A DNA stretch of 64,000 nt, taken from Spizellomyces punctatus DAOM BR117. Its lineage: Eukaryota. Numbering within the stretch: the stretch's first letter is position 1; each line of letters begins with the position of its first letter. The notes below the pieces were generated by a model. That model was given only the letters and a program-made list of their open reading frames with translations. It did not search any database and was not told the origin of the DNA. This document shows, in pieces, positions 7,064-60,801 of this stretch. The stretch is from NCBI GenBank assembly GCA_000182565.2, contig KQ257469.1; one strand, 5' to 3'. Position numbers and translations under genes: made by a program.

Positions 7064-7519
7064 GGATGATCGCCAAAGCCCACTGAGACATCCACACGCT
7101 TGTCAAAAACAAACAGCTGAACCAGGTTTTTGGATGTGAGACATAGGAGCGCAGAGGTACTCCTTTAGGGTTAGGACGGTTTCGACGGTCCAGGCGACAT
7201 TTCTGAGAGATATCGCAAAGTATGCATCTGAACGAATCCAATTAGTACACGCATTGACAAGGATATCATCGACAAAAGCACGCACCCAAGAAAAATGCAC
7301 AGCGTGGTATCACCAGCTAATCCCTTTTGCGTCGGAAGGACCCCATCGTTTGATCCTGATCAGGTTGTGCAGATTATTGTACTTCCGTGTATAAAAGCTG
7401 ATCTTGGGACGTTGTCGAGAGGAATAGCTTGCCGTGGCTCGTGGCTCGAGACCGTGCAGGCCTCTGACTGGGCAGATAAAGATGGGGAGATATCAGCCAG
7501 AGATGAGTGACGTTAGCAG

Positions 7520-7619
7520 NNNNNNNNNNNNNNNNNNNNNNNNNNNNNNNNNNNNNNNNNNNNNNNNNNNNNNNNNNNNNNNNNNNNNNNNNNNNNNNNN
7601 NNNNNNNNNNNNNNNNNNN
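7520..7619. other. Assembly gap (100 N)
   Basis: Run of n. Confidence 1.
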
Positions 7620-8084: not shown

Positions 8085-8460
8085 GGTATGGGATAATTGG
8101 CCATTGCTACTGTTTGGCTGCCTTTCTGCACAAACCCTGGCTCTTCTGGGGTCGCGGTCGCTCCCGTGTACCCGTGTTGTGGGAGAAGCCGTGCAGCAAT
8201 ACCTGCCAACACTGTAATGGCTAGCCGTGTTTCTCCGTGACCCTGCCACACGTATTTCTGGTTTGAACGGTGCAGTCCAACTTACGGTCAGGCGCTGGCG
8301 GGGAATGAGAACGTTGACATAGTGTGAAGAACACTAGGGGTTGACACCAAGATGGAGACACGAATCCTTCGTGAAGGCTGCATCGCCTAGGATTCCGCCA
8401 TCTCGTGTTTCGATTCAACGATTGTATAATGTAATTCTCATCACAAATGGAGGACCGGCA
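8085..8460 (-). repeat. Copy A of a ~370-bp dispersed inverted repeat (coding-derived relic)
   Basis: Reverse complement of ~11705-12085. Confidence 0.85.
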
Positions 8461-9889
8461 CATCTGCTGTTGGTTGCCAGTAAATTAATAGTTACCTTAC
8501 TGACCGTTATCTTTCCGTTTCTATTCTCTCTACTTCCGCGATTCCGAGAGGTGCATTTTAAGCATGGCTAGGTATCTGCAAACACCTGAACCAAAGATTG
8601 CTCCTCGGTTGAATGAGGAGATCAAGTCTTTGTTTCGAAGGGGGGCATCATGAGCCAAAGTACACACACAATACTCAAGATCTTGATGTATCCTCTGGTT
8701 GATGATGATGAGGCGGGCGGGGACGAGACTTGCATCCCGAAGCGATTCAAAACTAACCGACAATTTGGGCCTTGTGTGGATACGCCCAACCGTTGAAGGA
8801 AAAAGAGGTGATAACGGGATGGTATTTTGGAGCTAACGTTGCGAAACTAGAGGGGGAGTTTGTAAAGTATGCTCAATAGATATACTCGAAGGACACTTGG
8901 TAGGACCAAATTGTGTTCCGTGCACTGTTTGTATTTTCTTTCAAAATGAGCACAGATGATTTTGAGTTCTTCGCAAACGCAAGTTTTATGATATTCACAA
9001 AAGACAGAAACACAGATATGCAAGATATAACCTCTCCGACACAATGGGAAACTAACCTATCGTCCCATATGAATGCCGTACTTTTGTCTTTTTTTCCTTG
9101 GCTGTCGTTTCCTATTCAGCCCGCTTTTGCTGAGAAAGATAGGAAATATATTCCCCCACATTATTGCCCCATGAGGTCTGGGGCTTCCCCAAATCTCTTT
9201 GATGGCCGGTGCGGACGAGGCTTGATGAACACCCCACAACATAATTTCCTGACGTGCGTGAAAGACATTTGCAACCGCTCTATATGCGTGCATCTTTATT
9301 GAAATCGCTGTGTGCTCCCGGAAAACATTTGCAGCTACTACAAGTACTGACTGAATGCATTACTACAACTCGTATCGATATATTCACCGGGACATGTGGT
9401 TAGGTTTGATTGCAACTCGACTCGAAGTGTCCATTCAATCACCTGTGCTTGTCCGATGAAGACGTGATGTTGGACAGCATGACGTCTTCATGCCTTTTCC
9501 TGCGTTTTGAGACCTGACATCATCAAGACTTACAAACAAGCGTGCAGAATGGTATAATCAACAAAAGTCAAGGACAAAAGTGTTGAATGTATGTTCACCT
9601 GTGCCTTCTTACACACGGGCGGTCATATGTGGCAGTTTCCCCTGTTAGATCTCATAGTGGTTCGAAGACATTTTGTTATTTATATCTATGGAAGCAGTTC
9701 TCTATGTTCTGTATTATGCATTTATCCTGTATAAAGTCTTTAATTGCGCCATATCTTTTACACTTATTCCAGTCCTTCACACATTCCATGTATATAGCTG
9801 CATTGCATCACTGTGCCTCAACTGCTTGTCGTAGCACATCTCCTATACATATGAAAATGAAAGAGTTTTACCGGGTGTGCAGTGTACGT

Positions 9890-10005
9890 ACAGGTTCATC
9901 GGTACTTGCAGGGACGTGAACTCATTCTGTGCGGTTATTGTGGTCTTGCAGCTTTTGCACCTGATAAACGCTCTTTCTTTGCCACATATCAAGTGCTTCA
10001 TCATC
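9890..10005 (-). pseudogene. Inverted fragment of the USP-like family (zinc-ribbon part)
   Basis: Minus strand reads MKHLICGKERAFIRCKSCKTTITAQNEFTSLQVPMNL, homologous to ~6715-6825. Confidence 0.75.
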
Positions 10006-10154
10006 TTGACGCGATCTTCTCCCGCAAGCAGATCTCAGATGGCCGAAGAAGGTTATTCTCGCCCTCGAAGAACCTCCCAAATCGTGGCCGGCATATCTTT
10101 GCGTGAAGGATGAGGGAGGCAAGCGCCAGTTTGAAAAAGAGCTCGAGAAAAGGC

Positions 10155-10700
10155 GATATACCAATTTGTTCAGCAAATGAGTGCGATGTTCCCTCAAAGC
10201 AGCGGAGAGCGCCTACCGGTTTTGAGCAAGCCCACGTTCGCTTTACTTTTGACCCAAACTTCACTGATATTGGTTGACTGGACCACAGGACTGGCAAGAA
10301 TTGAATAACATTCTGACGATGCAAATTCTAGCCGACCGTGGAACACTCCTCTTTTCCGTCGCTGCCGGTCTAAAATCACTCTATAAGGTTGCGGATCTTA
10401 AGCAGGAAGAACAGCCCATATTCCGGCGAATCGGAAAACTTGGGAGGGTACTTCTGGGCCGCATTTGCCGAAGACCATCGTCCGTATTCTAGCGGGAGAG
10501 TTCTTCTGAGCCGCCTTTTCCCAAGATCATCGTCCATATTACAGCTTTTGATATAAGGCAAGGGAGATTGACGGCATCAAGTCGCCACCTCAGATGGGTC
10601 GGCCCAACAGGAGGACCCAACCTCGGACAGACCTGCTACATGGGGGCTCCAATTCAATGCATCTTGGCAGTTGATTCGATCACGAGGAGTTTCGGTGAAT
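10155..10700 (+). pseudogene. Second, internally deleted copy of the USP-like gene, including the Cys box
   Basis: Aligns to ~5800-6095 and ~6290-6530; GPTGGPNLGQTCYMGAPIQCILAVDSITR; internal ~53-bp tandem duplication near 10441-10548. Confidence 0.8.
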
Positions 10701-10709
10701 CACGAGGAG

Positions 10710-11490
10710 TTTGGCATTTTCTATATTTTTGGGGGTTCACACTAGTTATACAAATTTTGACGGTCCTTGGTCTACCCACCCACTGCACCTGTATTTCCAT
10801 TCGAACTAGACACACCCACACAACACCATCACCCTTAAAGTAGTGTAGCAGCCCGGCGGTACCCGTTGACAACGCGATCTGTGCAAGGTTGGCGATGCTG
10901 GTCTCATTACGAAGGTGGTCCATAACATAGGTTACTGTCGAGGTGCAGTCACAGACACTACTACTAAATAGAATCTCATTCAATTTTGCGTTGATTGTCT
11001 TGACTTGATCCTCAGGGAGAAGCTGGAGTATTTGGTCGTCGGCGGTGTCCACAATTCCCCAGAAGAGCAGTTGGAACCTCGCTGAAGTGTTATCGGACGA
11101 ATGCAACGTCTTGATCTCCCGTACCAATGGGGCCAGGCTCGGCGGGTAACCTTCAAAGCCGTAATCTTCTTGTAGCGGATTATCACTGAGGACCCCCTCT
11201 CCGTCGGAGAGCCCGGATGGGTCTCCTTCGAAGGGGGAGGTCGGCTCAGGGAACTCATCCTCGGACAGAAAGTCGTCGTGGATGGGAAGGAACCGTTTCC
11301 GTGGTGCATCCGGAGACGGCGATCTAGCTCGCTTTCTCTCGCTAAGCCAAATTGCCGTGTGGTGACTTTGATCTCCGACAGTCAGAGTTCCGTCATTACT
11401 GCGAAGTTTGACAGGCGCACGAACACTGTGGTCATTGACGTATTTAGCTCCTCGAACGCTGTGGTCCCGTATAATTACATTCCTGGAAAG
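10710..11490 (-). pseudogene. Degenerate coding-like relic of unknown family
   Basis: Overlapping ORFs 10654-11127 and 10980-11309 in different frames with protein-like composition; no recognisable motif. Confidence 0.3.
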
Positions 11491-11704
11491 TAGCTATGTA
11501 AGATGGTAAGCATCGGCGGATCTCTAGCCATTGATGCACTCCTCGTATTCGACTTACCGCTTTCCAAAAGTCAGCCACATCCTTGACAACCGATGCACAT
11601 GTGAAAATGAAATGGAAATATAATGGTTAGTAAATTGCTGCTTCTTGATTTGCGGTCGACTAATGCCAGAAGGGTCACTTCTCCTGTGCCCTTCTGGTAT
11701 TAGC

Positions 11705-12085
11705 TGCCGGTCCTCCATTTTGTGACGAGAATTACATTATACAATCGTTGAATTGATACACGAGATGGCGGAATCCTAGGCGATACAGCCTTCACAAAGG
11801 ATTCGTGTCCCCAACCTGGTGTCAACCCCTAGTGTTCTTGACACTACGACAACGTTCTCATTCCCCGCCAGCGCCTGACGGTCAAGTGTGGGCTGCATCG
11901 TTCAAAACCGAAATACGTGTGGCAGGGTCACGGAGAAACACGGCTAGCCATTACAGCGTCGGCAGGTATTGCTACACGGCTTCCACCACAACAAGGGTAC
12001 ACGGTAAGGACCGCGCACCGGAGGAGAGCCAGGGTATGTGCAGCGTAATGCAACCGGCGGTAGTCATGGCCAAGTATCCCAAGGA
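11705..12085 (+). repeat. Copy B of the ~370-bp dispersed inverted repeat
   Basis: Matches the reverse complement of 8085-8460; shared peptide AGSRRNTASHYSVGRYC. Confidence 0.85.
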
Positions 12086-28491: not shown

Positions 28492-30358
28492 ATGGGGATA
28501 TACATTACGTTCCTTATCGGATGGATAACATTGTGGAGTGTCCGTGCACAGCAGAATTTGTCTGTGGAGGTTCCGTTTCGATGGGGACATGTCGGTATTG
28601 GGGTTCAAGGGCGGGTTATGGTCGTTGGGGGTGTCGAGACGGTTGTTGAAGATGTGAATGGTAAATGTTCATGATTGAATGTATCTAGTATGGGTTTATT
28701 GAAAGGTTTTTTCGCGTGTAGAAGTCTTTCCAGTATCGACGGTTCCAACCCTGTTTTACACTCCGAGTACGAGTACGTTGACGGTACTATCCACATCGGG
28801 GACCTTTCCACCATCCATAGGGCACGCATGTACATTTATCGAAACGGATGGCGGGGTGTACTGTATGGGCGGGTATGAAGGGACAGCACCAGCATTGGCA
28901 CCACGGAGTCGACGAGGCGTCTGGAGGTTCAGTTTACAAAAAGGGGATTGGAGTGTTGTTGCTGTTAATGGATTTTTCAATACGTTTGGAGGTGTGGAAG
29001 ATGATACGGGTGTAGCGGATGGACAAGTAGTGTTTATCAACAGGTCATTGGTATTAGTGGGTGGACGAGGGTCCTGTTGGAGTTGTGGGGCAGTTGGAAC
29101 AGGGGAAACGGCCGTACAAGGTACGATATCCCTATTAGATGGGACACAAGTCCGAGTTGTGCATGAACCTGCTGGCGGGTTATATGGACATTGTACGGTC
29201 CAAGTCAACAACAATGTTTATACATTGTTTGGAAATACGACAACGAACGGAGGGAATAATCAGACGTGGGTGTTAGGTCTCGGAACGACACCACCGGTGA
29301 TTTCTTCACTGTTGTTGCTTCCAATAGGGTTTTCACCTCCGGTACGCTTATTCCCGACATGCACCGTGAACGGGAACACTATTATCGTAACAGGAGGCAT
29401 ATCACCTAATGGAACGTACCTAACCGATACATGGGTCCTCAACCTCTCGACACTTGTCTGGACATCCATGCCCGTAACGGGTCTCATCCCACCCCCACGC
29501 ATCCGTCCAGCCCTTTTTCAACTCGGGAATGGTGTCATTGGTTTACAAGGGGGATTACGACGGGATCGAGTAGTCGATACAGGACTCTACGCATTGGATA
29601 CAAGGACAAGACGATGGGAACAAGTTGTGATTAGTCGTCTCGAGACACCCTTACCCACTCCTCCTATACGTGAACCAGAGGGGACGAGTAAATGGTTAAC
29701 GATTGGGTTACCCATTGTGGTAGCCATCACAGCCATAAGCGTGTTGATCCTCGCGATCGGATTATGGAGATTCTGGATCCGATATCGAAATGATCATACA
29801 ATTGAACCTCGTCAAGATGATCATACAAGTAAACCTCCACCGTCTCCATCAAGAGACTCGGTAATAACCGTCCAACCCACCATCCCCCCTTTTCCCGATC
29901 GACATCTATCACCTGTACCACAACCTTTATACACACTCCCAAATGACCCCCTCCAATCCCTCCCCCAACCACGGCATCCAATCAATTTGACAAAACCCTA
30001 TACAGCCGCCCACGAACACACACCAACGCGTCCAGACGAAACACTCGTAACACCATCAGATACACTTACCATCCGAAAAGTATATAAAGATGGATGGTGT
30101 GTTGGGATGAATGTGACGACGAGGACGGGGGGGTACTTTCCAGTAGGTGTTGTAAACAGTCGGGAATGGGAAACCTCTTCCATGCATTCTCGACAAAGTG
30201 ATGAAACCAGTAATTCGACGTCAACGTTATGTTCACCCCCAGATGGTGTACTAAAAGTTTTGGAAGAGTTGGATTGGGCACTGGAAACTGGGGTACTGGA
30301 TTTGGAAACGTATTTTGGGAGGAGAAAACGGGTTTTTTTTTCTATTGGGTGGGGATGA
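28492..30358 (+). CDS. Single-pass membrane protein: signal peptide, kelch beta-propeller, TM helix, cytoplasmic SH3
   Basis: Signal MGIYITFLIGWITLWSVRA; kelch repeats (RWGH..VMVVGG, GHACT..YCMGG, YGHCT..LFG, IIVTGG..DTWVLNL); TM WLTIGLPIVVAITAISVLILAIGLW; SH3 HEHTPTRPDE...DGWCVG...GYFP; intron 28661-28721. Confidence 0.85.
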
Positions 30359-44471: not shown

Positions 44472-47400
44472 TCAGCGCATAAAACAGGTCACCTCACTCC
44501 AAAGCCAAAACGAAATAGTATTAACAACGTCATTGATATGCTGATACTCCACTTCATCCGCCACTCCCTCTCTAGAGACCGCAGAGACTTCACACACCAT
44601 GTCCCGAGAATCAAGTGGATTGCGATTCAGAGCCTCTGACATATTCGCGCCCATCGATGCTTCAGTGCTCGACCCTGATAGTGGTGTTTGAGGTTCATCG
44701 GTGCCAACAACGCTTCCACCCGCTAGGGATAAAGGTATGGGTGCCGCCAGTGGCAAAAGATTCAATGCGCCTACATGACGGGAAGTCACATCGGCTTCAG
44801 ATGTAGGAGAAACGGGGCTAACGTCGGATCGCACAGGTGACAGCACGAAATGGAGCAGATAGTCCCCGTTATGCGGATTAAAGAGCACCAAATGACGCCG
44901 CCCAGTCGCGCTGTCATCTACAAGATCGCGGGCCGTGTAGGAATAGTATGATTTTAGGTAATCGAGCAGCCTGAGCCAGGGAACTGCCTGGCTGTTGAAC
45001 AGATCTGCGAGATCTGGATCGATATCAAGTAGAGACCGGGAATTCGGCGCAATCTTTTCCAAAAACAGTTTTGTCCATTCACACATCCCGTCATCGATAG
45101 GAGCGCTGTCAGGAGATTCCGGGTTGGCGGCTGCCAAGGAAACAGGATCTTGGGCTTTTAGTAATTGCCGCCACAAATTATCACGCCCATAGTATCGCAG
45201 AGCCTTTTCAAACAGAGGACATGTTGTCAGAGTCAAACCATGATGTAAATACAGCAGTAGTGCCCCTTACCTGCTCAACCAACCGCTCCACTTTTCGCTC
45301 CGCGTGCCGCACAATATCCTTCAAGTAATACCCCCCAGCCAAATACTCATGCAGTGGATCAAACATCATCGCCGTTCCCATAACAGATGACCGACTATTA
45401 TCCAAATCACGATGCGGGAAGACGTTCTTCATATTGACAACCAATAGGAAATAACGCAAGTTGAGTTTAGCGGACGTTGATGACGCTCCGGCACTTCCTT
45501 TACGTTGATGGACACGTTGTTCTTCACGGAGCGTGGCAGTATCCGTAGCACTGTCTTCAACAGTCGAATACACCACGATAGTGTATACAGTCTCTGGACC
45601 CTCGACGGCATCGTCAAAGGTGCCACTTCCAGGTCGGCTGAAATCTGGCGTAGTGGATGTAAGAGAGCACGCGATAGGCTGGCCCTGGTAAACAATAGGG
45701 AAAAACCCGTAGCGCAATGGGTTCTTGAGAATATACTGGAACAGCGAACTCGATACTTGGCCATCATCAATGGCGCAAGACCCATGATGAATCCGGGAAC
45801 ATGCAAAATTGGCTTTACGCGGGTTGAAGAGCATAAAAGCCTTCATCACCAAGAGAAGATCCACCGGAGTTGGCTGTCGTACGCGACGTTCCAAGATATT
45901 TTGAAAATATCTCAAATGGAAATCGTACGAATCTACCATGAAACCAAAAAATCAGTTCAGAGCAGGGAAAGATCCAAATAAACACCAACACTGCGCAAAA
46001 ACACACACAACTCACATGAATTAACATGAACAAGGGCCTTTAGATTTGCACACGCACTCATAAAATCGTCCGATGCGTCCTTTTGATCCTTCTCTCGCGC
46101 CTCGACTGCAGCATCCACATGCCCACCAATGCCCTCTGAATAGCTCAGAGTGTACAGGTTAACGCAACCAAAAATCCCGTCCACGCCAACCTGCGCAATC
46201 AAAACCCCAGTGCTAAACCAGCGCACGAGATACGTTACATCTGCATCAACACAGAGACGATTTGAAATCCAGAATTTCGGCGTGACGCTCGAAGAAGCCG
46301 CAAACAAAGTGCCGCCAGTTCCACTAGTCACAGTATCAAGCCCTAAATGCCGTAGATATGCAACGTAATCCCGTAAATAAGTATCGATCAATTCGCGATA
46401 CCACCGCATCGTCGTCTCATCGTCAACTGAATTTGAGTTTATCCATCCCGACGAAGTGGCCTGACTGGCATTGGAGAGCAGAGGGGTTGGTGCAGTAGCA
46501 GATGACAGCTCCTTTCCTACGGGCGTATCCAAACTTCCTGGTATTCCGCTTGAAGGCAGATTGAGAGATTGACCCAAAAGCTGGTCACGAATTTCCGTAA
46601 ACAACAGAGGGTATTTTACAAAGTGCAACAACCGAACGGAGCGCAATATCTCCGCCATGTCAGACGCACTAATAAAGACTGGACCCGTGGTACCCTTACC
46701 ACCTGCACTGTCAGGCCGGTCACCTTCCCCCTGACCAGTAAACACGGATGGGACCGAAGGAGTCAAGTGCCCGGCAGAAAGACCACCATCGCGCCGGTTC
46801 ATACGTATGTGCCGCACAAACCAGTCCAGAAATTCTACAGCATGTTTTTGCAAAGTATCCACGTCCATGCCGTATCCAACCCGAATTCCCGCATCGGTTG
46901 TCGTGACCACAGCGCCCGACGTGCCCTTTTCCACCATGGGTGTTCCAGGTGTCGTCACAGTCCTTTGAGCAAAATGCGTCGCCATGGCCATAGCCACAGA
47001 ATCTCCTCCGTAGCTTGCAGGCACGGGCTGCTCTGGATCTGACCTTTGCTTGGGTACTCTGAAATTAAGCTGACGCGTTGTTCCCAATTGTTGCAACGAA
47101 GCAAACTCCTTTTCCAAAAATTGAATACGCAGGTTGTTCCAGCTCAATATCCGCAGAATCTGGCTGAATACTAGATCGCAATACGCACGATTCCAGTTAT
47201 ATGTAAAAACGCCGAGTTGCTCGTTTTCCATGGATAGCACTAGAAAACTGCTCCTGCTCCCCAACTCCAATACGGCGGGATGCAGGTTACCAGAAAATAA
47301 CACGACTTCATCCATCGGAGATTTGGGTCCGGAAGATGTCGCTAGAGTTGCAGCTTGGAAACCCCTAGATGGGCGTCGGTGATGCGGCGGAAATGAAACT

Positions 47401-50400
47401 GTCGTTGCACTTTCCGATGCCGAGTCCTCTTGCGGGCCACGAGCTGCGTTTACTCCAGTTGACACGCTAGGATTAACCGTTCCAAAGGTCATCATTGCTG
47501 CGGTGCTCGAGCTATACGGCCCTGATGAATCCGAGTCGAACGACTGCTTTCTGTCTACCACAGACGGGAACCGTGGGCGCCACGGCCCATATCGCGCATG
47601 GAGATCCTTCAAGCCAACGATCGCTACATACAAGTCCTTTCCTTCAACGCCGTCATTGTCAAAAGTCGCGCCATAGGTGCGTTTGGTAGGCCGGTGAACC
47701 TCAAACTCGTTTTGGCCTTCAATGGTTGACTTGAGTACCCTTCTTAGCATGACGGGAGTCAGCATAGCACCATTGCCCGTCAAAAGATCATTGACCTCTG
47801 CAGCAAACTCTTCAATAATCCAAGAAGGAAGGTTAACAGGTGATGTCAAGTGTTGAACTGTGGGCGTCCCAGCATCTGCGGCCCGTTGAAGAACCTGGCA
47901 AAGTGTCCCGTAAAACTCTGAAAAGTCATCCACAGGGACCGTATCGGCCTCTGGAGTTTTCTCCTCACACTGATCATTCTTCAGTTGGGATTCCGAATCC
48001 GTGGCAGAAAATGGGGAGACCAGGGATCCCGTGGGGCTTTGCACAGTGTCCACATACAACTCTGGGGCAGACTGTAGAGGAGAATCCTTCGCGCCGGCAT
48101 TCAATCTTCCAACTGTTGCTTCAACCATGTAATCCATCAGCGTGTTGCGGACGGCGGTGTCCAACCGCCCAGCAAGCCCATCCAAGTTGATGCTGCCCTG
48201 GCACCAAATGTCTGCAATAAGCTTATACCCTTTCCACTCAGTTGCATCCTCCTGGCCGCTGTGATGAGCGGGCATCCATTCTACATGTTCTAGTAGCTCA
48301 CCAGTGGTCACTGTCCCCTCCACTCCTCCTTCGGCACCGACGCCAGGTGCTTCCACCATGACGCGTCCCTCATGGTCCAGTAGTGCCAAGCATATAGAAG
48401 CGATTCCTTGGCCCACCGTCGCCTCTGTGGCAGTCGGATTTCGGGTGGGAATACAATTATACAAAAATGAAAAGTCGGATAGCTGCACTTCATATGTACG
48501 TTTCCTAGCGGGGTAAATAGCGATCAGCACCATATGACGCTGAACTTTGCCTTCAAAAAACGTACCCTTGAGGATTGTCAACGGCCCTGTCCGCCCATCC
48601 AAACGTGGCACCATAATGTTTTCTCAGACTGGACACCACATCCGCACCGCCAAGAACGTGCAACCACGACAATAAATTTTGTCGAAGGAGCAGCAGAAAC
48701 ACGTACGGGCTTCTCACCAGTGTAGGCAATTTGAACCATTCACGCCGAATGGGGCCACAGCCACGGCCCGCGGGTAGAATAAAGTCCAAATCCGCTCGAG
48801 TCAACTTTAACGTAACATTTCTGGCTAAAAAGGTCCCAAGAACATGTTGGGTAAGAGCATTGATCTTCACTTCCACCATATTTACAAACTCATTTGTGAT
48901 TTGTGGGCCAGGTCTATCCACTCCGAACACCTCCAGTACGAGCGCCCAATCTGGGGACCGAGACGTTCCGGTCGAGGGAGCTCCAGATACGACAGACGGC
49001 GGCGCCAAACTGGATATGGTTGAGCGTCTCATTAGAGGCGAGTTTTGTCCTTTTGGGGAATCCGATAGTCCCGGTCGAACTGTGGTTCCAAGCCCTTCGC
49101 TCAGGCTTGCCGACAATGGCGCAGCCTCGGACTTTTGATCCCTCTCCTTCTCCAGATCCAGTTCCTCAACAGACATCTTCATGTAAAAGACAGATCCTTT
49201 GGCAGCAAACACCAGCATGTTCTTCCTATTGACTATTCCGAATGCTTCTAGGGCAACAACGATGCTGCTCAACGCTTGGTGGGGACGAAGCCGCCAATGG
49301 AGTGGAAAGCTATGGCGGAAGACTAGAGGACAGGCAAAGCGGCCAACTGGGAAGCGATTGCCAGGTCCATGTTCCGGAGGAGAAGGGCTCGATGAGAGGT
49401 CGTCATCGTCCCTTGGTCGGATACGCAACTGTCCGGGTGCAGACTCATCCTCCTGATTTGTCGGAGCGATAAGGTACTTACTGATGAAGAAATACGCTTC
49501 GCTTAATACTTGTCCTGTGGGGCAACAAATACGTGATTTCCTTACCTGGCAGTATGCGTCTCACTCAGGCGCTTTAAGAGATAAAGCCGGTTAACCCGCT
49601 CACAGCAGTCCGTCACACCTTGGCGTACCGTGCGAACAATAGCCAATCTGTCATATCCAGTTACACGCTTCGAGAAGAAATGCACCTGCGCGGACTGTCC
49701 AGCCACTGTGACAATGAGCCAGAATTTGCGCCGCTTAGACGACCCCTGGCCCTTGAGGGTTCTGTCATCCTCTCTGACCGGTGACATTGTTCCTTCCTTG
49801 TCCACCTTGTCCAGAGGTTTGCTTGACTCGCTCTTCAATCCGTCCAGCGAGATTCCGAGTCCGTGCACGTTGGAGGCCGCTCTATCCTCATCCTCCAAAC
49901 TCAACTCATTTCTCTCAGCTTCATGGCTGTCCACAAATAATTCGTCAACCACACAGAACAAGTCCCCAAGTCTTTGCATTCCGCCAACGCCTAGATTCTT
50001 TTGTTCAAGTTCATCTTGGAACATGTGGACCCCTACAGTTGGGCTGATAAAAACTAAAGGAAAGTTCAATGCCAAGCTAGGACCAGATTCTGTAGCAGCA
50101 AAAACAGGGCTGGACCCTTCATCCTCAACGGCCGCATTGATACCATGTCTCTTTCGTAAAATGCCTTCGATAAGTCGAACTGTCGAGGCCTGTACCGGGT
50201 GAAACTCCAGAAGCGCGTGCATAATTTCATCTTCCAGTAACGCCTCGATTTTACGAGCCGTTTCTTGTAAGACTACCTCTTTATCTGTTGTCAACGAAGG
50301 AGGGGATTGCTCATTCAATGCCGCGTGCGATCCTAACGCTTCGTGAATGTCGCTTCCGGTTCCACTTTCCCGGCTTGGGCTGAGCAGGATACTATCCTGG

Positions 50401-53400
50401 TCGGATCCCTGACGAAGGCCACCACTTTTTATCGGCGAGTCCACCCGCAAACTTTGCGGGATAGTTAAGCACACCAAATGTAACACCGCTCTCGTCCCAT
50501 CGCCACTTTCTATCGGGCTCACAGACGTTCCAATATCCTCTGGAGTGAAATCCAACACCTCTGTGGTCTCTGTAGTCATTGAATTCTCATTTCCCAATCG
50601 GTACGATCCGGGAAGATCTGTAACAGGAATTTGAGAATGTTCGGCATCCGACACAGTCCGCTTTCGGAAAGAACACTCGGTGCGAATAAACAGCGGTGTT
50701 TCCGCACACTCAAGGTTCTTGAACAGTGTATTAAACTGCAAAGGACCCAAAGGCATGGTCGAGGATGACTGTTCCGGCGTCAGGCGTCTTCGACCTGTAG
50801 CAGGGCCAAAAGATTGACTACTGACTGGCACAGGTTGATGCGGTGGGGCGCTCGTACTGGTAGCGAACAGATTGAGGGTGGATCCTGTATTAGACCTTGA
50901 TGGAGGAGCCTCAGGTTGAGAAACACTTTTCACCAGCGGACGATAAAAGTAAACGTTTCCCTGAGTAACAGTTGATGACGGGACTGGACTGAAGTACTCT
51001 GCCAGCACTTCACGAAAGAGCTCCTGAACATCCTTCTCACTGCCCTCTCTAGAAGAATTTAAAGATGTAAAGGTTACGGCACAAGGACAGACGTAGTTGC
51101 AGTTTACTCACTCTTTCCCAGTTCCTCCCCTGTTGTCGCTATTGTCGATGCTGCTCAATCTTCTTCTTTCGCTCAAGATCCGCACATTCAAATAGCCTGT
51201 AATATCGATATCGATGCTTGTCTCGACGCAAGCCACCACTGCTCTTTGCAAGTCTTTAGTCTCCACATCATAACCCTGTAATAGTGCGGCATACACCGAT
51301 TTCGTAAACGCAGAAGCGAATGCATTATTTAGTTGTGATAGGAACTGTTGAGCGTATTCAGAAAGGGTATCATTTCCGGTTTCGCTCGCCGAAGCGTCCG
51401 CAATAGACGACTCATGGGAAGAGTTACGACTGCTTGAACAATAAAAGCCGCGGGTCGAGCCTTCCGCCAAGACACATCCGTCAACTAGTGCCTTATCCTG
51501 AGTTGACGGTGTCCATGTGCGGATCCTATAATCCTGCAACCCTCCTTTCTTAGGAGCGACGGGCTGAAAGGGAGGATCATCTGTAATAGGGATGCCGCTG
51601 CTTGGCAACCCCGCTCTAACGCACTCCACGACAGTCAGCGCTAGATACTGGGGAGACGTCTCGTCCTCTGTAGCCTCCGATTCTTGCCCCTCCATGTTAA
51701 CCTCTGTATTCAGCATCTTTAGCACTCCAGATCCTTGTCTTTTATTTTTCGACCATGGTTCAAGCGGATAATGGGGCAGGAACACAAGCACAAAGCTGTG
51801 CGGATCCCGGATTTTAACAAAACATTTGGAATCTGTAATGGGTCGCAGGAGGATGTCGGGAAAGTTTTCCTTGCTGTCATCAGAGATTTTCTCTATCGTT
51901 TCTTTAACCCGTTCCAGCAAATCCTTGGAGTGTTCTACCCCTCCGCTAGTTGAGGTCGTTCCCACTTGCCCATCACCCAGCAGAATCTCTCCATCAGCAA
52001 TCAAACCAATCATCCGCTCTAGATATCTGCAAAGGGCCAGATTGATCCTGCTCCTTCTGGTTGTCGCTAAAAACACCGCTTCGAGACTCAGCCAATAGCC
52101 AGGATTGGGCACCGCCGTGCTTTCCTGCACCTCTGGTTTACGCGATGGTATGTTCACGGTTAAGCTAAGGTCGCCACCTCGGGCCCGCAAAAGACCGGCA
52201 TGGCTAGGGGCACGGCTCAAATTCGCAGGTGTGGTAATTTCTAGCAAATTATTTGAAGATGGCGTGCCGGATCGATCTCCACGCAAAGACATTATATCTG
52301 CGATCATGTCGCTGCTAGATGTAAAAGGCCCTGGTGTTGGGGACGGTGACATGGCCCCATTTGCAGGGGACGCCAATACGCCACTGATCGCAGGAGACAA
52401 CGCTCCCTTGGGTAGCTCTTCACACTCGCCTTCACACACCGCAGGAAAATGATACGCCATTGTAGCAAACTCTGCGTCTTCTAGCACGTATCCAAGGGCA
52501 AACTTGGTCGTAACGGCGGTAAAGCCGCGAGCAGACGCAAACCGTTTAGAGCGTCCAACAGGTTTGTTGTCATTTTCCGGGCTTCCACCACCCGCGCGGC
52601 CCAATGCATGAATTTTATCAAACGTGAATAGCTTGTTAAACAGGTCGTGATCTTCCTCGAGCATTGTATCCGCTAACTTGTCATAATGCTCCTTGAATAA
52701 CGCCGCTACCGGCATATTACCCAGGGTATCACTTATCGCCACCTCCGACCCAGCCGGACCATCGACGATCGGTTCTACCCACAGCTCAGTTATGACGTTC
52801 ATATTTTTGTCATCTTTCATGAGAACAAACTGCACAGCACAGATTGTGTTGGGCTCCTGTTCCAGCTGCTGCGGATCGGCTTCGGCTCGAATTGCCTTCC
52901 GTTTCCGAATCTCAACTTCACGATACATTGTGAAGGATTCCGGTGTCTCGCTGATGGTAACGAATCCCTCTTCAACCCTCTTGCGATACATCAGGAGAAA
53001 GGCTAATTGATGTACAGGCATCCGATCGTCGCCAATATTCAGATCAAGTTTATCAACTTCCACATCTGTAAGCCACACCCACCGCTGATTGCGAAGATAG
53101 GCCTTTAAACCCGGATCGGACAAGTATCGCGCTTCGACTGCTTCGATGGCGCTGGCTAGTCGCGAAGCAGGAGATGGAGGTTCAGAATCGGGAGGTGTTC
53201 GAACAACTTTAATCGGCTCCTCCAGTATTCGCTCAGTACGGGACTCTTCAAGTTCGCCCTCCTCTCCAGGCTGGTACACTATCAGAAGCTGTCGTACCGG
53301 TTTTTGGCAGACGATGAGGGGTTGGAAGGTAGCCCCGGACGTCCTCATGGTGTGACTGATATTCCGGACGCCTTGAATCAACTCCGTTATCATGCCCAAC

Positions 53401-56182
53401 CTTTCCGCCGGTTCCATCCCAAAGAATGCCAACTGAAGTGTGGTAAGGCATTCATTTTCTGACGCCAGCGATAAAATACAAAAGCCAGAGGGGATTTCCT
53501 TTACGGTTTTGCCACCTTCAGTATCGATTTCGTGAGCAGGACTGTCCCCGTCTCTTTGTACGAACTTTAAAAACCGCCCTTTCCCAACCGCAAAAGTACA
53601 CCATTCCGATGTCAAGTGATCATTGAGGTAAATCGTGGCAACCTGTCGCTTGGTGCTTCTCAGACTTTCCCCTCCCGTAGATGTCGATCTCAGGATTACA
53701 TCACAAGTCCACTCATAAAAGGATTCCCATTTGCTTGTCATTATCTGTGCGAGCACTTGCCAGTAATTGTTCGGAGTGTTTGTTCCGTGACTACCGTTTC
53801 CCGGTGAGCCAGTTGCCGGTCTCCCACCAAATGAGGTCATAAGACCAAGGGCATTATCGGTGGTTAAAGGAAACATTCGCTGCTCAGTCTGCGGAATCAC
53901 TGAGAGGGCATATTTGGTGTTGTAAGATGCCAGCACCTGGATGTGTAATGAGGGCTTCATTGATGACACTCATTTTAATGGGCAAGAATGCAAAGACTAA
54001 CCTTGAAAGAATCATCTGTTTCATAGATTCTCCTTAGGAAGGCATGCAGTTTGACCAGCTTCTCCTCGATTGCATGATTAAAAGTGTTCTTTTGCTCCAA
54101 ATTCTGGGCATTGATGAATAAAATCGCAAATGCATGCTGTGCAAGAATATTCAATTCGATCCTTGGGAGTTTCTGCGATCTACCCGTCAATAGCGGTCGG
54201 TCTGTCGCTGTCCAGGTGGTCTTGATTGTATACATGACGGTAACGTTTGTGAACCAAGGCATTGTAAGGATGACTTCGACTTTGTCGGGCCGATTTGATC
54301 GTGGCGTCACATGCACGCTACTTAAAACAAAGCCCTCATGTAGGCGGGCAGAGATTATATACTCCAGATTGATATTTAGAGTGTAATCACGATAGCCGCA
54401 TAATATCTCGGCAACGAGGGGAGGTTTACTGGTGGGATCCCACGGGAATGACAGCTCCTCCAGTGATATGTTTTGGGTAGTATCAACACTGGCGTTCAAG
54501 AGTCGACCTCGCGGGCAGTCAACTGACCGTTCCCGCCGACTTCCATTCACTACCCGATACCGGTATTCTGTGCCCGATTTCGTCAGGGAACCATCGCGAA
54601 AAAGGAGGTGGCGGTGATAGAAATTCGGAGGTGGAGGAGAATCGGCTGGACTACTATCACCATCCAAATAGTTACAGTCCGCTCCGTATAGAAACGTTCC
54701 GGCAGCCGCAATACCTAGAAATCGTAAAAATTCGTTATCGGCGACATGACCGAAATTGGTCCCTGGCGTATATCCATCTCCTGCCCCGACTTGGATGATA
54801 GTGAATACTGCATTTTCGCGTGATAGCTTTCTACAGCAGTCTCGCGCAATTTGCTCCCCAGCTCCCGCTGGGCTAACAACACCGTCCGTAATGACTACCA
54901 ATGCCGACATGCAGTCCTCTGGCAGGAGGTTTAATGCAAATAATCCTCTGTTTACTGCCTTGAAAACGCTATCCGACGGAGTAGTATCCAGATTGGCTCC
55001 AATCGGCCTCGACGGAAGGCTCGCGTACTCTGCCGTGTCGGCCATTAGAAAACCTGCCTCATCAAGTGGCCCAATGTTGTCCTGAGTCTCCCAATCAGCA
55101 GAGGCGGCCGCTTGTGATCGAGTGTCTCTTTGTCGCTGCTGTACGAGATCGTGTTCATAAGCATTGAGCGCATCGTAAAGTCTCTCAGCAACCGCTTCCA
55201 TGTTGTTCCGGGTCACCACAACTTCCTGCAGCAGTACGCGAGTCGGGTACGTCCGACTGAAGTCTGCTGCTAACGGGCTTTGCTCACTGCGAAAATAGGA
55301 AGTTCCGCATTCAGCCAGTACCGTCACATATATAACCGGCTCGACCTATGAACATCAAGTAAGATTCACGCCTCAAACGGACCAGCTGGACTACAACCAC
55401 ACAACTCGGGTTTCATACATCATAGGTCCCATCGCGCATTGTGCTCTTCATCGAAAACGGTCTACATATTCCGTCTAGGCACTTGCAGAGCCTGCTCAGG
55501 ATTACCCGAAATCGGTGAGCAGCTTCAGACCAATTACCGTCGATATCACTTACGTTTCAAAAGCTACAGATATCAGCGCCTTGGCTTTCCCACTGCTATC
55601 GTCAATGACCGACATGGAAGGTGTAATGTCCACCACAAACACCATTCGATAGCGAGCCGCGAATGAGTAGATTCGAGTTTCTGGCGTAATGCGAAAGCGT
55701 CGATCTTGGGGAGATGACCGCCGCGCAGGCGTACGCAAGGGAGATGGGACAATGGGATCGTAAGAGATCGATCGCAAAGGTGGCGATAGAGAGTGGTCGG
55801 GGGATAGTGGGCTGTCCGGGTTTTCCGAAAGGGAATGCCGTGTCCATGGCAAATGGTGAGAATCGGTCGTAACCTCCACAACTTCCACATTATCATCCTA
55901 TTATAGTGCAATAGGAAAAATAACGTTTAGCCCAATTTGTCGCTTCTCAAAGCCCATAAAGAGAATGAAGCAGAAGCAACCATACGTCTAACTCTGCAGG
56001 CGCAAGTGGACGCAGGATGTGTCGCAGTATCCAGGTATCATAGTCGGCACGAGTGAAGATTGACGGTCGTTTCAGGAGCAATACGATGGCTGCAGCATCT
56101 TCAATGGTGGGGCCCTGCTTTCAAGAGGCGAGATATCAGCATGGGCCAGATCGTGACGAGATAGTAGATGCCTCACCGTCAT
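44472..56182 (-). CDS. SZT2: KICSTOR complex scaffold SZT2 homolog, multi-exon, >3500 aa
   Basis: N-terminal FRITPETRIYSFAARYRMVFVVDITPSMSV, LVVITDGV, IISARLHEGF, PVGRFACPLVF...LHWRL, GRDNLWRQL; consecutive long ORFs separated by short GT-AG introns. Confidence 0.85.
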
Positions 56183-56408
56183 CGCGAAGCACAACCCCAC
56201 GTTCCAAAGAGGTTTTAAGACTCCAGATCGACAGGCGCTGTATCAGAGACAAATGGGAGAGCCGAAATAGGTAGATTGGCTGCCATTGGTTCTCGCAGAT
56301 GGCACCAAAGCCAAAGAAAGTGTTCGCAATGACACTTGCTCACTTCATGTATGGGTGGCGCAGTTCAGTGTTGATCTCAGCGTCCCAAGCAATTTCCAAG
56401 TAGAACGA

Positions 56409-56632
56409 GATCATGAAGACTAAAGACTCGTTCAGAGCTCAAAAAAACTAGAGTATCGTTCAGAGATGAAGAAGACTAAGGACTCGCTCAAAGATCAAGA
56501 AAACTAAAGACTACCTCAGAGCTCAAGAAAACCAGAGTATCGCCCAAGGATCAAGAAGACCAAAGGCTCTTTGAGATATCAGGAAAACTAGAGTATCGCT
56601 CAAAGATCAAGAAGACTAGAGGATCGTCCTCA
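56409..56632. repeat. 28-nt minisatellite, ~8 units, two unit types
   Basis: Units such as gatcaagaagactaaagactcgctcaaa and gctcaagaaaactagagtatcgttcaga in exact 28-nt register. Confidence 0.85.
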
Positions 56633-56776
56633 TTGCCCTCCAAATAAGAGCAAGTAGAAACAAAAGGAAAAAGACTAGACAACGATATAATGTAATTTTT
56701 TATTATATTTTATATTTTACAATGTTACATTCCTATTATCATCGTCCCATCCCCCTCCCCCGGCGTATTGTTTGTT

Positions 56777-57103
56777 GGGGGCCATCCCGTCGTTTGATAG
56801 TCCCCCCCTTCCCGTCCGTCGTGGGGGGTCTTGATGGCCCGCTGTCGGTGTTGGTGATTTGGGGGGGCATCTCGTTCTGATGACCCCCCCCCCCCCCCCG
56901 TCGTGTCGTGTCGGGCGGAGGTGGGGGGACCATCCCGGTTTGATGGCCCCCCGTCGTGCCGGGGTGAGGGGGTGGGGTGTGGGGCCATCTGGTTGATGGC
57001 TCCCGTCGTCGTGTCGGGGTGGGCGGGGGACCATCCGTTTTGATGGTCCCCCGGGGGGGTGTCCGGGCGGATCGGTTCGGGGGACTTCTCGTTTCATTTG
57101 CCC
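56777..57103. repeat. Array of ~6-7 GC-rich hairpin repeats
   Basis: GGGG(A)CCATC-N5-9-GATGG(T)CCCC units at ~56777, 56860, 56924, 56981 and 57025 (partial at 56824, 57079), mostly followed by cgtcgtg(t/c)cggg. Confidence 0.8.
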
Positions 57104-57624
57104 CACGGCGAGTCGTAATCCGCTCGACCTTGGCCGATGGACGATATCGGTGGTCTTCCAAGTAGTGAGATGTGCGAATAGTAATACTCGATGCGGAATA
57201 TCTGATACATGGAGATACTAGCTTGCATATAACGTCGGGGTTCAGACATGGGGCGGATGTTATTGAATTTTGGATAGGGTGTTGTGTATGTGCTATGTTC
57301 CAGTTGCCAGCAGATCTGTATTGCGCAGTTGAATTTGTCGACACTAATGCACTAAATAGACCTAATGTACATTTCAAATTAAAGATAGCGAGGTTGCTCT
57401 ATTGGTGCATGTACTGTCAATCCTTTAGGAAGAGACAAGCAAAAAGAACAAAAAAAAAGAACAGATGCATCCCATAATAGCGTACGACATGAGTAGGCTA
57501 CACTGCATCCAGTACAATAATTTCTGCATGTATTGCTATGCTTTCGTATTGTAAAGAGATCCCAGACCATACAGAGCCTGTGTTGAGGAATTGCAGGACA
57601 TGCCTTGCTAATTCAAAAGTCGAG

Positions 57625-57711
57625 ATGGCCATATACTTGTAGTGTAGAGGTGACAGAAACTGGCACTAGCTACACCAGGGAAGATACCGGCGACAACCGG
57701 TTCGGAAAAGC
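57625..57711 (-). ncRNA. Fanzor omegaRNA (scaffold ~57711-57640 plus ~15-nt guide 57639-57625)
   Basis: Minus strand GCUUUUCCGAACCGGUUGUCGCCGGUAUCUUCCCUGGUGUAGCUAGUGCCAGUUUCUGUCACCUCUACACUA|CAAGUAUAUGGCCAU is collinear with the SpuFz1 omegaRNA scaffold as I recall it (GUUUUCCGAGCCGGUUGUCGC...UCCCUGGUG...GCUAGUGCCA...CACUA) and ends exactly at the TIR end. Confidence 0.85.
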
Positions 57712-58209
57712 CAAGTAATTCCCTCCTTACAACCAACTACTACTAGGCCCAATGGCACATGCAATACATTACGGTTGTTCTAACCGGGTAACTAAGCCCA
57801 CCACACGAGAGAAATCCTACTAAGCCCTTGATTCCGATATTCTTTAGTCGGAGGATGTTCAGATACTAATTAAACCAGAATTAGACTCGGAATACGGGCG
57901 TGGGAACATACAAAGATAATGCATACCTGCGATCGTTGCCAGAGCGGCATTCTCATGCTGGTCTTGAGAGTTGCTTGAGCGTGGGCAGATGCTTGCGAGT
58001 CGAAGATGGGTAAAGAGGAAAGGGAAAGAGACAGAAGGTCCCCCTTTTATAGACCTTCCGCATGCACCTCACCGCAGTTTAAAAAAAAACATTACAATAC
58101 ATGCCACACCAATCTGAGCGATAGAGGGGTGCTGATTATGCGATATGACTAACCGGATTAATCCGGATAATAATGAATTCTAGTGCCATTTTCAATCACC
58201 TCCACACTA
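57640..58209 (-). mobile_element. Non-autonomous Fanzor1-associated TIR transposon ('ghost' locus)
   Basis: 30-bp TIRs at 57640-57669 and 58180-58209 (26/30 identical), TA at both ends, 5'-CATA at 58211-58208 on the minus strand, no nuclease ORF inside. Confidence 0.88.
58045..58051 (-). promoter_or_regulatory. TATA box (TATAAAA) inside the ghost element, oriented toward the omegaRNA
   Basis: ctataaaagggg followed by a pyrimidine-rich tract, ATG at 57956 and GTATGC donor at 57926. Confidence 0.5.
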
Positions 58210-58329
58210 TGCAATATCTGCGCATGAGGCACAGTTGTCAAGGCTTCCAAAACGGTGCCACTGGTCGTTGGCAGCAGAAGCAGGCCACACAACAGTTTGG
58301 GTGAAATCTAAGCAACGCTCTCCGTCATC

Positions 58330-58923
58330 ATGTCCAACGCACCAGCAACATGGGAGCTGTACAATCTGGCACCTGGGGAAAAAAAGTAAGCTCATCCCGA
58401 CAATGTGCCTTATCTAAAGCCACGTTCTAACATACCGCACTATAGGGTCAGAGAGATAAAGGACACAAAGATCCCAAACGCCGCAACCTTTGAGGTCCAG
58501 AAAGAGGATCACACCCTTGGAAACCTCCTACGCACGTAAGATTTACCAACACATCCTGCTTCCCGCCTTGCGCAGAGTTCCTAACCCAGTTGGCTTGTAG
58601 ACAATTGTTGAAAAACTCTAAAGTCCTGTTTGCCGGATACAAAATGCCCCACCCACTGCACCATTCTTTTGTTCTCAAAGTTCAGACAACTCCAGAGACC
58701 TCACCTCTTGAGGTTCTGCAAAATGACGTGAATAGCTTGATTCGCGAAATCAGTTCTATCAAGCTCAAGTTTGAGGTAAACCATCTGAGAGAGTTCTTGC
58801 GTCAAGAGTATTTTTGGTGCTGAACGGCTCACACTTTTGTAGAATGAACTCACTCTACATGGTCTGACTCAGTCGGAGCCAATGGGCGGATCAATGTACA
58901 ACTCTGTCGATACAGCGTATTAG
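58330..58923 (+). CDS. RPB11: RNA polymerase II subunit RPB11, 4 exons
   Basis: [41 protein letters not shown]. Confidence 0.95.
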
Positions 58924-59111
58924 AAAAAAGTCGATTGACCGGTGGTGCGCCAAAATGCTCCAACTCGTCTTGGAGGGCTCTGAAATGCCGATCCAATGCG
59001 CCAGCAACCTGTATATAAAAAGTACCAAAGCTATTGTAAATGCTATTAATTATTACCGAGTCGCTTATGATACATAAAATGCACATTGAGTATTATGCGT
59101 AACAGCTGTAC

Positions 59112-59199
59112 TATTAAGCCGAAGTGGATGGTTCCCCCGTCGCTACGTAAGTAATTATTAAGCCGAAGTGGATGGTTCCCCCGTCGCTACGTAAGTAAT
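59112..59199. repeat. Perfect 44-bp tandem duplication spanning a stop codon
   Basis: tattaagccgaagtggatggttcccccgtcgctacgtaagtaat x2. Confidence 0.95.
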
Positions 59200-60801
59200 T
59201 CGCCTGTCAGACGCCACGATCTCTCCAATCGGCACGTCATCCTCTCCATTCAATTCTGCTTCCAACCCTCGTCGCATGCAACACACCAGACATGGAAGAC
59301 AGCAGCAAAAGCAGCAAAAGAGCAGACTGCTGATAATGAACACCGGAATTAGAATCACCGCGGTTGACGGTGTACCCATACCGTCCTCCAACCGTTTGAC
59401 CAAGAGTCCAACTCCTAGATAGAGGAAAAACGCCATAATAATCAAAAAGATAATTCGGCCAACAAGCAAAACTCGAAGTTCGGCAGGCTTTCCAGCGGCA
59501 GCGGTAGCACGTCGAACAGCCACATGCTCCATTATGATGACAAGTATCTGAATGAATGCCCAGAGCCATGTGGGAAGGAACACTAATCCCCAAGATGCGC
59601 TTATATCGCCATTAAATTTTGCGATCAGCAAAGCTGCTTGAATAATTCGGAGCGGAAATGTCGAATAGGAATCGAAGAAAAGTGCCAGTTTCTCCATTGA
59701 CGAGAAAGGTCGGGTTCCCGGGGTTTGTGATTCAGGGTCTTCATCGTACGGCAAGGGAATCGCTCCTTGCCGAATTGTCCTCACATAAGCGACAGTAATG
59801 TCAATAACGTTGAGAATTTCCATTAAAAACCATGGAATAAACACGATTGCCCAGTTCCAATCGACAGTATCGTCCAAACGGAGCACGAGGAAAATTTGGA
59901 AAAGAAGGAACAGCCCAAAATAGCACCAACGGACTAAAGAGTTAGACGACGCCTTCAGCTTCTTCTTCTTCTCTCTCTGCTCCCGGCGCTCAAAATTTGC
60001 TGTTCGATCTTCCGTAAACCCATCTTCCTCCTCGTCTTCTGGAGTTTGCTTTGTTGAGCGAGTCGATAAAAGAGCGAAAAGGAGGAACAAATCGACAATA
60101 AATAGCGGGATAAACACCACACCCCACGACCAGAAAACTTTGTTGTCCGCGCGCACAGAAATAAATGCGGGAAACATGATCAACAAAGCCGCAATAAGTG
60201 TGCCGACGAAAAAGAGGGTGTTCATTGCGAGTAGAATATCCGGGTCAATAAAAGGGGCAACGTCTCCCATCGATTCCATTAGGACCACGCCCCGCTCGCC
60301 CTATGACAGCCACAAAGTGTCATTAGAAATCAATACATCTCTTCAGTATCCAAACAGAAAAAACTATACATATTGATCGTATATCCTTCGCTTCTTTTCA
60401 TCGCCTAAAGCCCCGTCAGCACTTTGCTTGAGATCAAAGATGTAATATATCACGACGACTCACTCAAAACTTCATACGCTCTTTGCACGAGTTGAAAAAG
60501 CTCTATATTCGCAGGGTCTTGCCCAGTTTTGTCAGGGTGACAACGGAGTGCCTATATTATTCAGTCACAAGAGTTGAGATCACGTCAAGTGCCAACAGAA
60601 GGACCAATGTGCTCAAAGTACCTTGCGTCGATATGCCTATATTTGAATTGTTAATAAACGTTATGACTTTGCTAGGGATCAAGGTGCAAGGCATACCTTT
60701 CTGATAGCTTCGGCATCTGCCGTCCGAGGAACACTCAGGACCTCGTAAAAGTCCCTATTTGGCATGGACGCCAGGTCCGGTAATCCTCCACGGCCTGCCA
60801 T
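59158..60801 (-). CDS. DnaJ (J-domain) protein fused to a TMEM185/TMEM60-like multi-pass membrane domain
   Basis: DFYEVLSVPRTADAEAIRK, ALRCHPDKTG, AYEVL..DEKRRRIYDQY..ERGV; repeated LRLD..V.W.W..VFIP.W helices; C-terminal Cys cluster CCFCCCLPCLVCC. Confidence 0.85.

Follow-up and report, generated by a model that had tools for sequence, protein, structure and literature searches.

A ghost Spu-1-type element of Spizellomyces punctatus with a predicted omegaRNA scaffold and a predicted flank-derived guide

A 570-bp element in the DNA examined here, a 64-kb stretch of the genome of Spizellomyces punctatus DAOM BR117 (the whole stretch is called the window), is almost certainly a ghost Spu-1 element of that strain. 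Ghost Spu-1 elements are non-autonomous, have no nuclease gene, and share their ends with the ~2.1-kb Spu-1 elements that encode Fanzor1. Taken as a whole, the evidence is very probably best explained by a copy of this published family that supplies a guide to the SpuFz1 nuclease in trans; for the narrower proposition that a working guide RNA comes from this very copy, we put the chances at even. The copy presumably belongs to the 134 ghost loci already listed. The kind of element is already known, ghost loci having been published for this same genome in 2023.

Among RNA-guided DNA nucleases of eukaryotes, Fanzor1 of S. punctatus was the first for which programmability was shown. The text of Saito et al. 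(2023, PMC10432273) counts 42 loci in the S. punctatus genome at which a Fanzor1 gene is present in full or in part, and catalogues 134 “ghost Spu-1” elements, described as a conserved region of ~550 nt between 30-nt inverted repeats (IRs), with CA conserved ahead of the 5' IR and, at the 3' IR, 75 nt similar to the omegaRNA of the Fz loci. The IRs of ghost and Fz loci are said there to differ at seven positions, and stem 2 of the ghost omegaRNA to have a 3-nt bulge in place of an 8-nt loop. The same text gives native omegaRNAs as 88-90 nt long, made up of a 75-nt scaffold and a 14- to 15-nt variable extension, and the target-adjacent motif (TAM) of SpuFz1 as CATA, with cutting lost on any single change; it also states that no transposase was found within the Spu-1 ends and that four ghost scaffolds supported SpuFz1 editing equal to that of improved canonical scaffolds. 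An earlier description of the autonomous element (SPu-1; Bao and Jurka 2013, PMC3627910) gives ~2,100 bp, 33-bp inverted ends, and putative TA duplications. According to the text of a 2026 paper (PMC13434818), 126 unique ghost scaffolds of 74-76 nt (gst1-126) were extracted from the S. punctatus genome and representatives were tested with SpuFz1 variants for genome editing. Our literature search on Fanzor ghost loci returned nothing beyond PMC10432273 and PMC13434818.

The element lies on the minus strand, with its 5' (left) end at 58209 and its 3' (right, omegaRNA) end at 57640, and is made up as follows:
57640 to 58209, minus strand: whole ghost Spu-1-type element, 570 bp, bounded by inverted ends and by steps in DNA read depth
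58210 to 58211, minus strand: CA dinucleotide beyond the 5' inverted end, from the sequence and from DNA reads of sister copies
58180 to 58209, minus strand: 5' (left-end) 30-nt inverted repeat, matching the other arm at 26/30 positions
57670 to 58179, no strand assigned: non-coding interior, 510 bp, from the lack of an ORF and from read depth
57640 to 57714, minus strand: predicted omegaRNA scaffold, 75 nt, from the fold, 14/18 named SpuFz1 nucleotides, and variants in stem-loop 1
57640 to 57669, minus strand: 3' (right-end) 30-nt inverted repeat, which forms the 3' half of predicted omegaRNA stem 2
57625 to 57639, minus strand: predicted 15-nt guide CAAGUAUAUGGCCAU, in flanking DNA, placed by the published 14- to 15-nt rule

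The inverted-repeat search placed two arms at 57640-57669 and 58180-58209, each of 30 nt, 87% complementary (26/30), and 510 nt apart; they are one of three inverted pairs reported between 57000 and 58800. At up to 3 mismatches, the 30-mer of the inverted end occurs once in the window, as itself (shuffle mean, 0.00), the other arm being 4 mismatches away. When 2 mismatches are allowed, the terminal 14-mer is found in the two arms only, against a shuffle mean of 0.29, with at least two matches in 4 of 100 shuffles. In minus-strand letters, the 5' junction is ...TTGCA followed directly by TAGTGTGG, and CATA stands at this junction because the CA outside the element adds to its terminal TA (58208-58209); the 3' junction runs from ...CTACACTA into CAAGTATATGGCCAT. 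Both element ends start with TA, as would be expected of the target-site duplication of a Tc1/mariner-type miniature transposon, but this TA is not separable from the inverted repeat itself. An earlier note on this DNA had described a 570-bp element with 30-bp terminal inverted repeats matched at 26/30, TA at both ends, and CATA on the minus strand, and the inverted-repeat search and junction sequence confirm each of these features; the 15-nt guide that it quoted is exact and has a single occurrence in the window.

The longest ATG-initiated ORF overlapping the element has 62 codons' worth of protein (62 aa). Three of its 21 stop-to-stop frames, compared with PDB sequences in a search that had no positive control, showed no Fz coding remnant and gave chance matches at E values of 0.47-1.2. 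A blastn self-search of the 64-kb window revealed no further copies, returning the element, its two ends, and 4 chance matches of 13-17 nt. Metagenome contigs scanned with a pattern for the inverted end and another for stem-loop 1 gave 0 matches each, and among the matches listed for a 13-nt piece of the inverted end sought in the literature, there were papers on tick-borne bacteria only.

The neighbors of the element in the window are eukaryotic genes, with Kelch, RING, and Tmemb_185A families recognized by Pfam among 10 ORFs. The Kelch ORF (28703-30358) matches SPPG_08229 of S. punctatus DAOM BR117 at 100% identity; of the three proteins matched at E values up to 1e-10, the next are at 84% in Spizellomyces sp. 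“palustris” and at 44% in Phlyctochytrium arcticum. No TnpB-type Pfam family was recognized among the 10 window ORFs, and all four ORFs of at least 600 aa (at 14876, 23142, 45957, and 51108) were without a Fanzor match in a comparison with PDB chains that likewise had no positive control. For ORF 19582, zinc fingers were the sole match among PDB chains. The nuclease gene would lie elsewhere in the genome, a placement that we take from the text of PMC10432273; since 42 Fz loci are reported in the same genome, the cognate nuclease is therefore taken to be the known SpuFz1.

Reads mapped to 57450-58400 at 85% likeness show that the element is one member of a family. The DNA run used here (X19) carries the same species label and is a ChIP library of 38-nt reads, in which depth is not equivalent to copy number. 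Its depth, summed over both directions, is ~46-87 in the flanks and 218-2,090 between 57642 and 58217, i.e., 3- to 30-fold over the flanks, with steps at the ends of the inverted repeats (up at 57640, down after 58210). Among the best-supported loose read ends, listed ahead of 427 others, 29 reads break off before 57640 with a consensus agreement of 0.43, and 21 behind 58211 with an agreement of 0.48. The CA is therefore common to the copies and both outer flanks vary. The family is thus multicopy, its edges coincide with the inverted ends, and its flank on the guide side is variable, an asymmetry that agrees with the published one; sister copies with a constant 5' CA, a variable guide-side flank, and a sharp stop at 57640, as the earlier note had expected, are found in these reads. 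Most sister copies diverge from the window copy at 57867, where there are 11,344 loose ends of RNA reads, and the stretch 57670-57865 is common to many of them and heavily transcribed. A further run (X3, organism B) yielded three contig pieces, none extending into the flanks, one of which is identical to the window copy over 57644-57867 and then diverges.

The last 75 nt of the minus-strand element are predicted to fold, at -22.4 kcal/mol (z = -2.61; 2 of 200 shuffles as good), into two stems joined by a linker; stem 2 contains three unpaired nucleotides (CUA), and the whole has the architecture of the ghost type. The predicted parts are as follows:
57686 to 57701, minus strand: predicted stem-loop 1 (ACCGGU, loop UGUC, GCCGGU)
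57678 to 57685, minus strand: predicted unpaired linker, from the fold
57640 to 57677, minus strand: predicted stem 2, in which the inverted end pairs with the stretch upstream through 8 outer pairs, the unpaired CUA lying inside

The complementary strand of the 75 nt has a fold z of -2.32, with 3 of 200 shuffles as good. Folding by itself leaves the strand undecided, the two folds being of nearly equal quality; two G-U pairs do form on the minus strand where the plus strand has mismatches. Variation within the family bears on stem-loop 1. The changes 57698 C>T (218/1216 DNA reads and 20,939/32,127 RNA reads) and 57689 G>A (158/996 DNA reads and 14,669/24,674 RNA reads) fall on the two sides of one pair of this stem-loop and are about equally frequent, and together they would replace G-C by A-U, read linkage between them not being visible. 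Between 57640 and 57682, there is no variant at 10% or more of the DNA reads among the positions listed.

Because the main texts of the SpuFz1 papers (PMC10432273 and PMC13434818) print no scaffold sequence, we compared the 75 nt with the 18 SpuFz1 scaffold nucleotides that are numbered in the text of PMC10432273, leaving two blocks free to slide. At three offsets, 14 of the 18 were matched: U5, C6, C7, U16, G17, U18, C19, and G20; C32, C34, U35, and G37; and A72 and A75, anchored at the end. A count of at least 14 was reached at just 60 of 127,810 window positions. The misses are C40 and G70 (a predicted U-A pair here), G22, and the equivalent of A29 at 57683, where 93-98% of family reads do have A and the window copy departs. 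The test is a loose one, and the match may be taken as support for, not proof of, a scaffold of SpuFz1 type. An unrelated site at 3624 (minus strand) reached 16/18 with offsets allowed and was taken as chance, there being no inverted end at that place. The opposite end of the element, with 9/18 named nucleotides and a fold of -8.2 kcal/mol, was rejected as a second omegaRNA, and the scaffold is therefore on one side only, as published. With a 75-nt predicted two-stem fold and 14/18 named nucleotides, the proposal that an omegaRNA-like scaffold occupies the minus-strand end of the element up to the terminal repeat is supported.

RNA from the family is abundant. The RNA run (X18) carries the same species label and consists of raw reads no longer than 60 nt, nearly all of them first mates, from a library of undocumented type. 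In all, 175,406 of 26,394,413 records (0.66%) fit the stretch, and they fall on the omegaRNA-side 225 nt of the family. The depth of first-mate-minus reads is 5,386 over 57642-57673, 26,920-51,893 over 57674-57833, and 24,778 over 57834-57865; in the opposite direction it is at most 209 across 57642-57865, and in the flanks it is 0-5.5. As many as 167,013 of the 175,406 reads fit only partly, and just 16,570 are at least 99% like the window copy, so the RNA is therefore mostly from sister copies. At 57683, ~353 of 19,743 reads show the letter of the window copy itself. Depth is 76 at 57639, the first letter of the guide, and falls outward to 5.5 (57578-57609), 4.1, 2.2, 0.5, and 0. This decay is in keeping with transcripts that run through the scaffold and end shortly past the guide, their ends being placed at the resolution of read depth only. 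For the plus-strand neighboring gene, depth is 1.4, 3.1, and 1.1 in the first-mate-plus direction versus 1, 0, and 0 in the minus direction. Judging from this pattern, which comprises few reads, and from the outward decay, the abundant family RNA is probably on the minus strand.

The element agrees in kind with the ghost Spu-1 elements as the text of PMC10432273 describes them. It comes from the same genome and shares with them 30-nt inverted ends, a size near ~550 nt, the CA before the 5' end, a predicted two-stem scaffold at the 3' end with a 3-nt unpaired stretch in stem 2, a predicted flank-derived guide, an empty site compatible with CATA, and the lack of a nuclease gene. There is no difference in kind; what sets the window copy apart is that two linker letters are private to it and that its interior differs in part. 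The reading of this locus as a Fanzor1 ghost accordingly stands, as its inverted ends, CATA, predicted 3' scaffold, flank guide, and lack of a nuclease gene all match the account in PMC10432273. Its 75-nt predicted scaffold is of the same kind as the 74- to 76-nt gst1-126 scaffolds taken from the ghosts of this genome (PMC13434818). With SPu-1 (PMC3627910 and PMC10432273) it has in common inverted ends, a putative TA target-site duplication, and a predicted omegaRNA region adjoining the 3' end. That element is ~2,100 bp long with one ORF of 633-638 aa, whereas the window element is 570 bp long without an ORF, and the inverted ends of SPu-1 are given as 33 bp in PMC3627910 and as unlike ghost ends at seven positions in PMC10432273.

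The explanation that comes nearest to rivaling a guide-supplying copy accepts the descent from ghost Spu-1 and holds that the copy is an inert relic, left by a past insertion into the promoter region that separates two divergently placed genes. We consider this a serious possibility, somewhat short of an even chance. At two linker positions, 57683 and 57685, the window copy has substitutions of its own, and 93-98% of the DNA and RNA reads of the family differ from it there; at these positions it accounts for at most ~2% of family RNA, compared to ~7% of DNA (54/791). Its two inverted ends are unlike at 4 of 30 positions, its interior parts from most sister copies at 57867, and no RNA end is listed at the expected guide end, in a run for which no places of read beginning or end are listed at all. 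Set against decay of function, the inverted end and stem 2 are without departure from the family among the positions listed, both predicted stems fold, and the contacts that the text of PMC10432273 names for the linker in the SpuFz1 structure are at C32 and C34, not at the substituted positions. Moreover, ~350 RNA reads have the window copy's own letter, and depth reaches 76 going into the guide versus 0-5.5 in the flanks.

Two other explanations would detach the element from SpuFz1 altogether. In one, it is an ordinary TA-flanked miniature transposon, and the RNA is a plus-strand product from the 57640 end with no relation to omegaRNA function. That both strands of the 75 nt fold about equally is in keeping with this, as is the convention of most stranded libraries, in which the first mate is antisense and the RNA would then be plus strand. 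The plus strand near 57640 and 57697 also has a weak likeness to what we take to be internal promoter boxes of the tRNA type, which we counted for the miniature transposon. However, ARAGORN found 0 tRNA genes over 57400-58400, and the 4 weak matches that Rfam gave over 56500-59500 at E values up to 1 all lie outside the element. The plus-strand neighboring gene is mostly first-mate-plus, flank reads fade outward from 57640, the two extra G-U pairs belong to the minus-strand fold, and published ghost scaffolds function as omegaRNAs (PMC10432273, in its text), all of which leaves a plain miniature transposon improbable. Less credible still, to the point of being very improbable, is the proposal in the earlier note that the scaffold marks an uncharacterized Fanzor subfamily, or a different species, with an unknown nuclease of its own. 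Four of the 18 named canonical SpuFz1 nucleotides are unmatched and three offsets are needed, which is what this proposal has in its favor. The differences would nonetheless be those published between ghost and canonical scaffolds: the IRs of ghosts and Fz loci were already described as unlike at seven positions, and stem 2 as unlike too, and four ghost scaffolds edit with SpuFz1 as well as canonical ones do (PMC10432273, in its text). Representatives of the 126 ghost scaffolds have also been tested with SpuFz1 variants (PMC13434818, likewise). A different species is contradicted by the match of a window protein to SPPG_08229 at 100% identity, which places the element in S. punctatus DAOM BR117.

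If the favored explanation of a ghost Spu-1 copy supplying SpuFz1 holds, the element would act as follows. Transcription, which is seen for the family and would run on the minus strand, would proceed towards the 3' end of the element. The RNA from 57714 to 57640 would fold as the two-stem scaffold, and the transcript would run ~15 nt into the flank (57639 to 57625) to take up the guide. For this step, the fold and a partial agreement with the published scaffold are in hand, and the RNA ends are predicted. SpuFz1 from an Fz locus elsewhere would then bind this RNA in trans, as published for other ghosts. By the TAM rule, the complex would be expected to cut CATA followed by the guide sequence, which is the element-free site (CA, one TA, and the flank). 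The occupied site would be spared because the guide match there is preceded by ACTA, not CATA. Repair from the occupied copy could then restore or spread the element, as has been proposed for TnpB, whose RNA-guided cutting has a homing role.

The likeness to TnpB extends to the arrangement of the parts. As compared in the text of PMC10432273, the omegaRNA of TnpB in IS200/IS605 elements (ISDra2) is also a guide RNA at the right end with a guide from the flank, and its TAM is at the left-end flank, hence the empty site is the target. The SpuFz1 omegaRNA, as that text has it, is without a pseudoknot, unlike the omegaRNA of TnpB. In contrast to IS200/IS605, the window element carries no HUH transposase and shows inverted ends with a putative TA duplication, features typical of cut-and-paste transposons.

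The window element adds no new kind and re-finds a ghost locus in the genome where ghosts were defined. What is gained is modest, namely independent support, at the level of reads, for the published anatomy: the edges at the inverted ends, the common CA, the variable guides, and the compensated stem pair. That nucleases of this sort take guides from many protein-less elements is suggested mainly by the ghost loci. In this connection, it is possible, though we think it unlikely, that one or two “master” ghost copies are expressed very highly as long guide-RNA precursors and that ghosts are dedicated guide-RNA genes of Fanzor. If true in a library of known type, a few highly transcribed ghosts would bear on how guides are natively produced and used. 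Under this suggestion the masters would have the loop changed from UGUC to UAUC together with the compensated stem pair, and the window copy would be a weakly expressed member. The suggestion is made because most of the X18 RNA has letters found in just 2-11% of DNA reads: T at 57722 makes up 78% of RNA versus 4% of DNA, A at 57747 makes up 59% versus 2%, and T at 57694 makes up 62% versus 11%.

RNA of the ghost-element family is very abundant in the RNA run X18, in which 175,406 of 26,394,413 records were family reads matched to 57642-57865. The letters of this RNA are not those that prevail in the DNA reads of run X19, a ChIP library under the same species label. Among family reads placed on the element copy, T at 57722 is carried by 4% of DNA reads compared to 78% of RNA reads, A at 57747 by 2% compared to 59%, T at 57785 by 8% compared to 53%, and T at 57694, within the predicted omegaRNA scaffold, by 11% compared to 62%. 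At all four positions the letter predominant in RNA is thus the one that is rare in DNA, which suggests that the bulk of the family RNA in X18 arises from one or two strongly expressed sister copies.

Most sister copies begin to diverge from the window copy at 57867, as seen in the reads, and a contig from organism B (X3) is identical to the window copy across 57644-57867 and then departs from it at the same position. The X19 DNA depth drops to 218-375 over 57866-57993, compared to 900-1,200 in the adjoining stretches. Given the departure of the sister copies and this dip in depth, the interior segment of the window copy at 57866-57993 is one of the less common kind in the family.

An AACCGG...CCGG hairpin is present at each end of the element, about 16-17 nt inward of the inverted repeat:

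57686-57701, hairpin at the omegaRNA end
58145-58174, hairpin at the other end

The omegaRNA-end copy is stem-loop 1 of the predicted scaffold, and the one at the other end is a 17-nt palindrome with no adjoining stem 2. The element's transposase may bind this hairpin as a subterminal site.

Directly to the right of the element lies a gene (58331-58540, plus strand) that, judged by eye and from its ...EDHTLGN... motif, resembles an intron-containing gene for a small RNA polymerase subunit of the Rpb11/AC19 type. On that reading, the element would sit in a spacer of about 930 bp between this gene and the minus-strand ORF at 56739-57398. The stretch 56407-56649, left of the element, is a tandem repeat with a 28-nt unit in six overlapping copies, and an exact tandem duplication of 44 nt is found at 59112-59199, at the end of a Tmemb_185A-like ORF.

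Two further elements in the window have long inverted ends:

5408-7063, element with long inverted ends
8153-12015, element with long inverted ends

The arms in this pair measure 87 nt at 99%, and 127 plus 164 nt at 90-93%, and the two elements have interior sequence in common (5973-6529 and 10317-10699, 87-92%); they probably represent another transposon family. A run of N at about 7440-7570, seen as X in translated frames, is an assembly gap.

Five long open frames of 888, 335, 521, 953, and 456 aa follow in series on the minus strand at 45957-55345. Pfam returned no family for the four frames other than the 335-aa one, and the two compared with PDB gave no match. Together, the frames may form a single very large gene.
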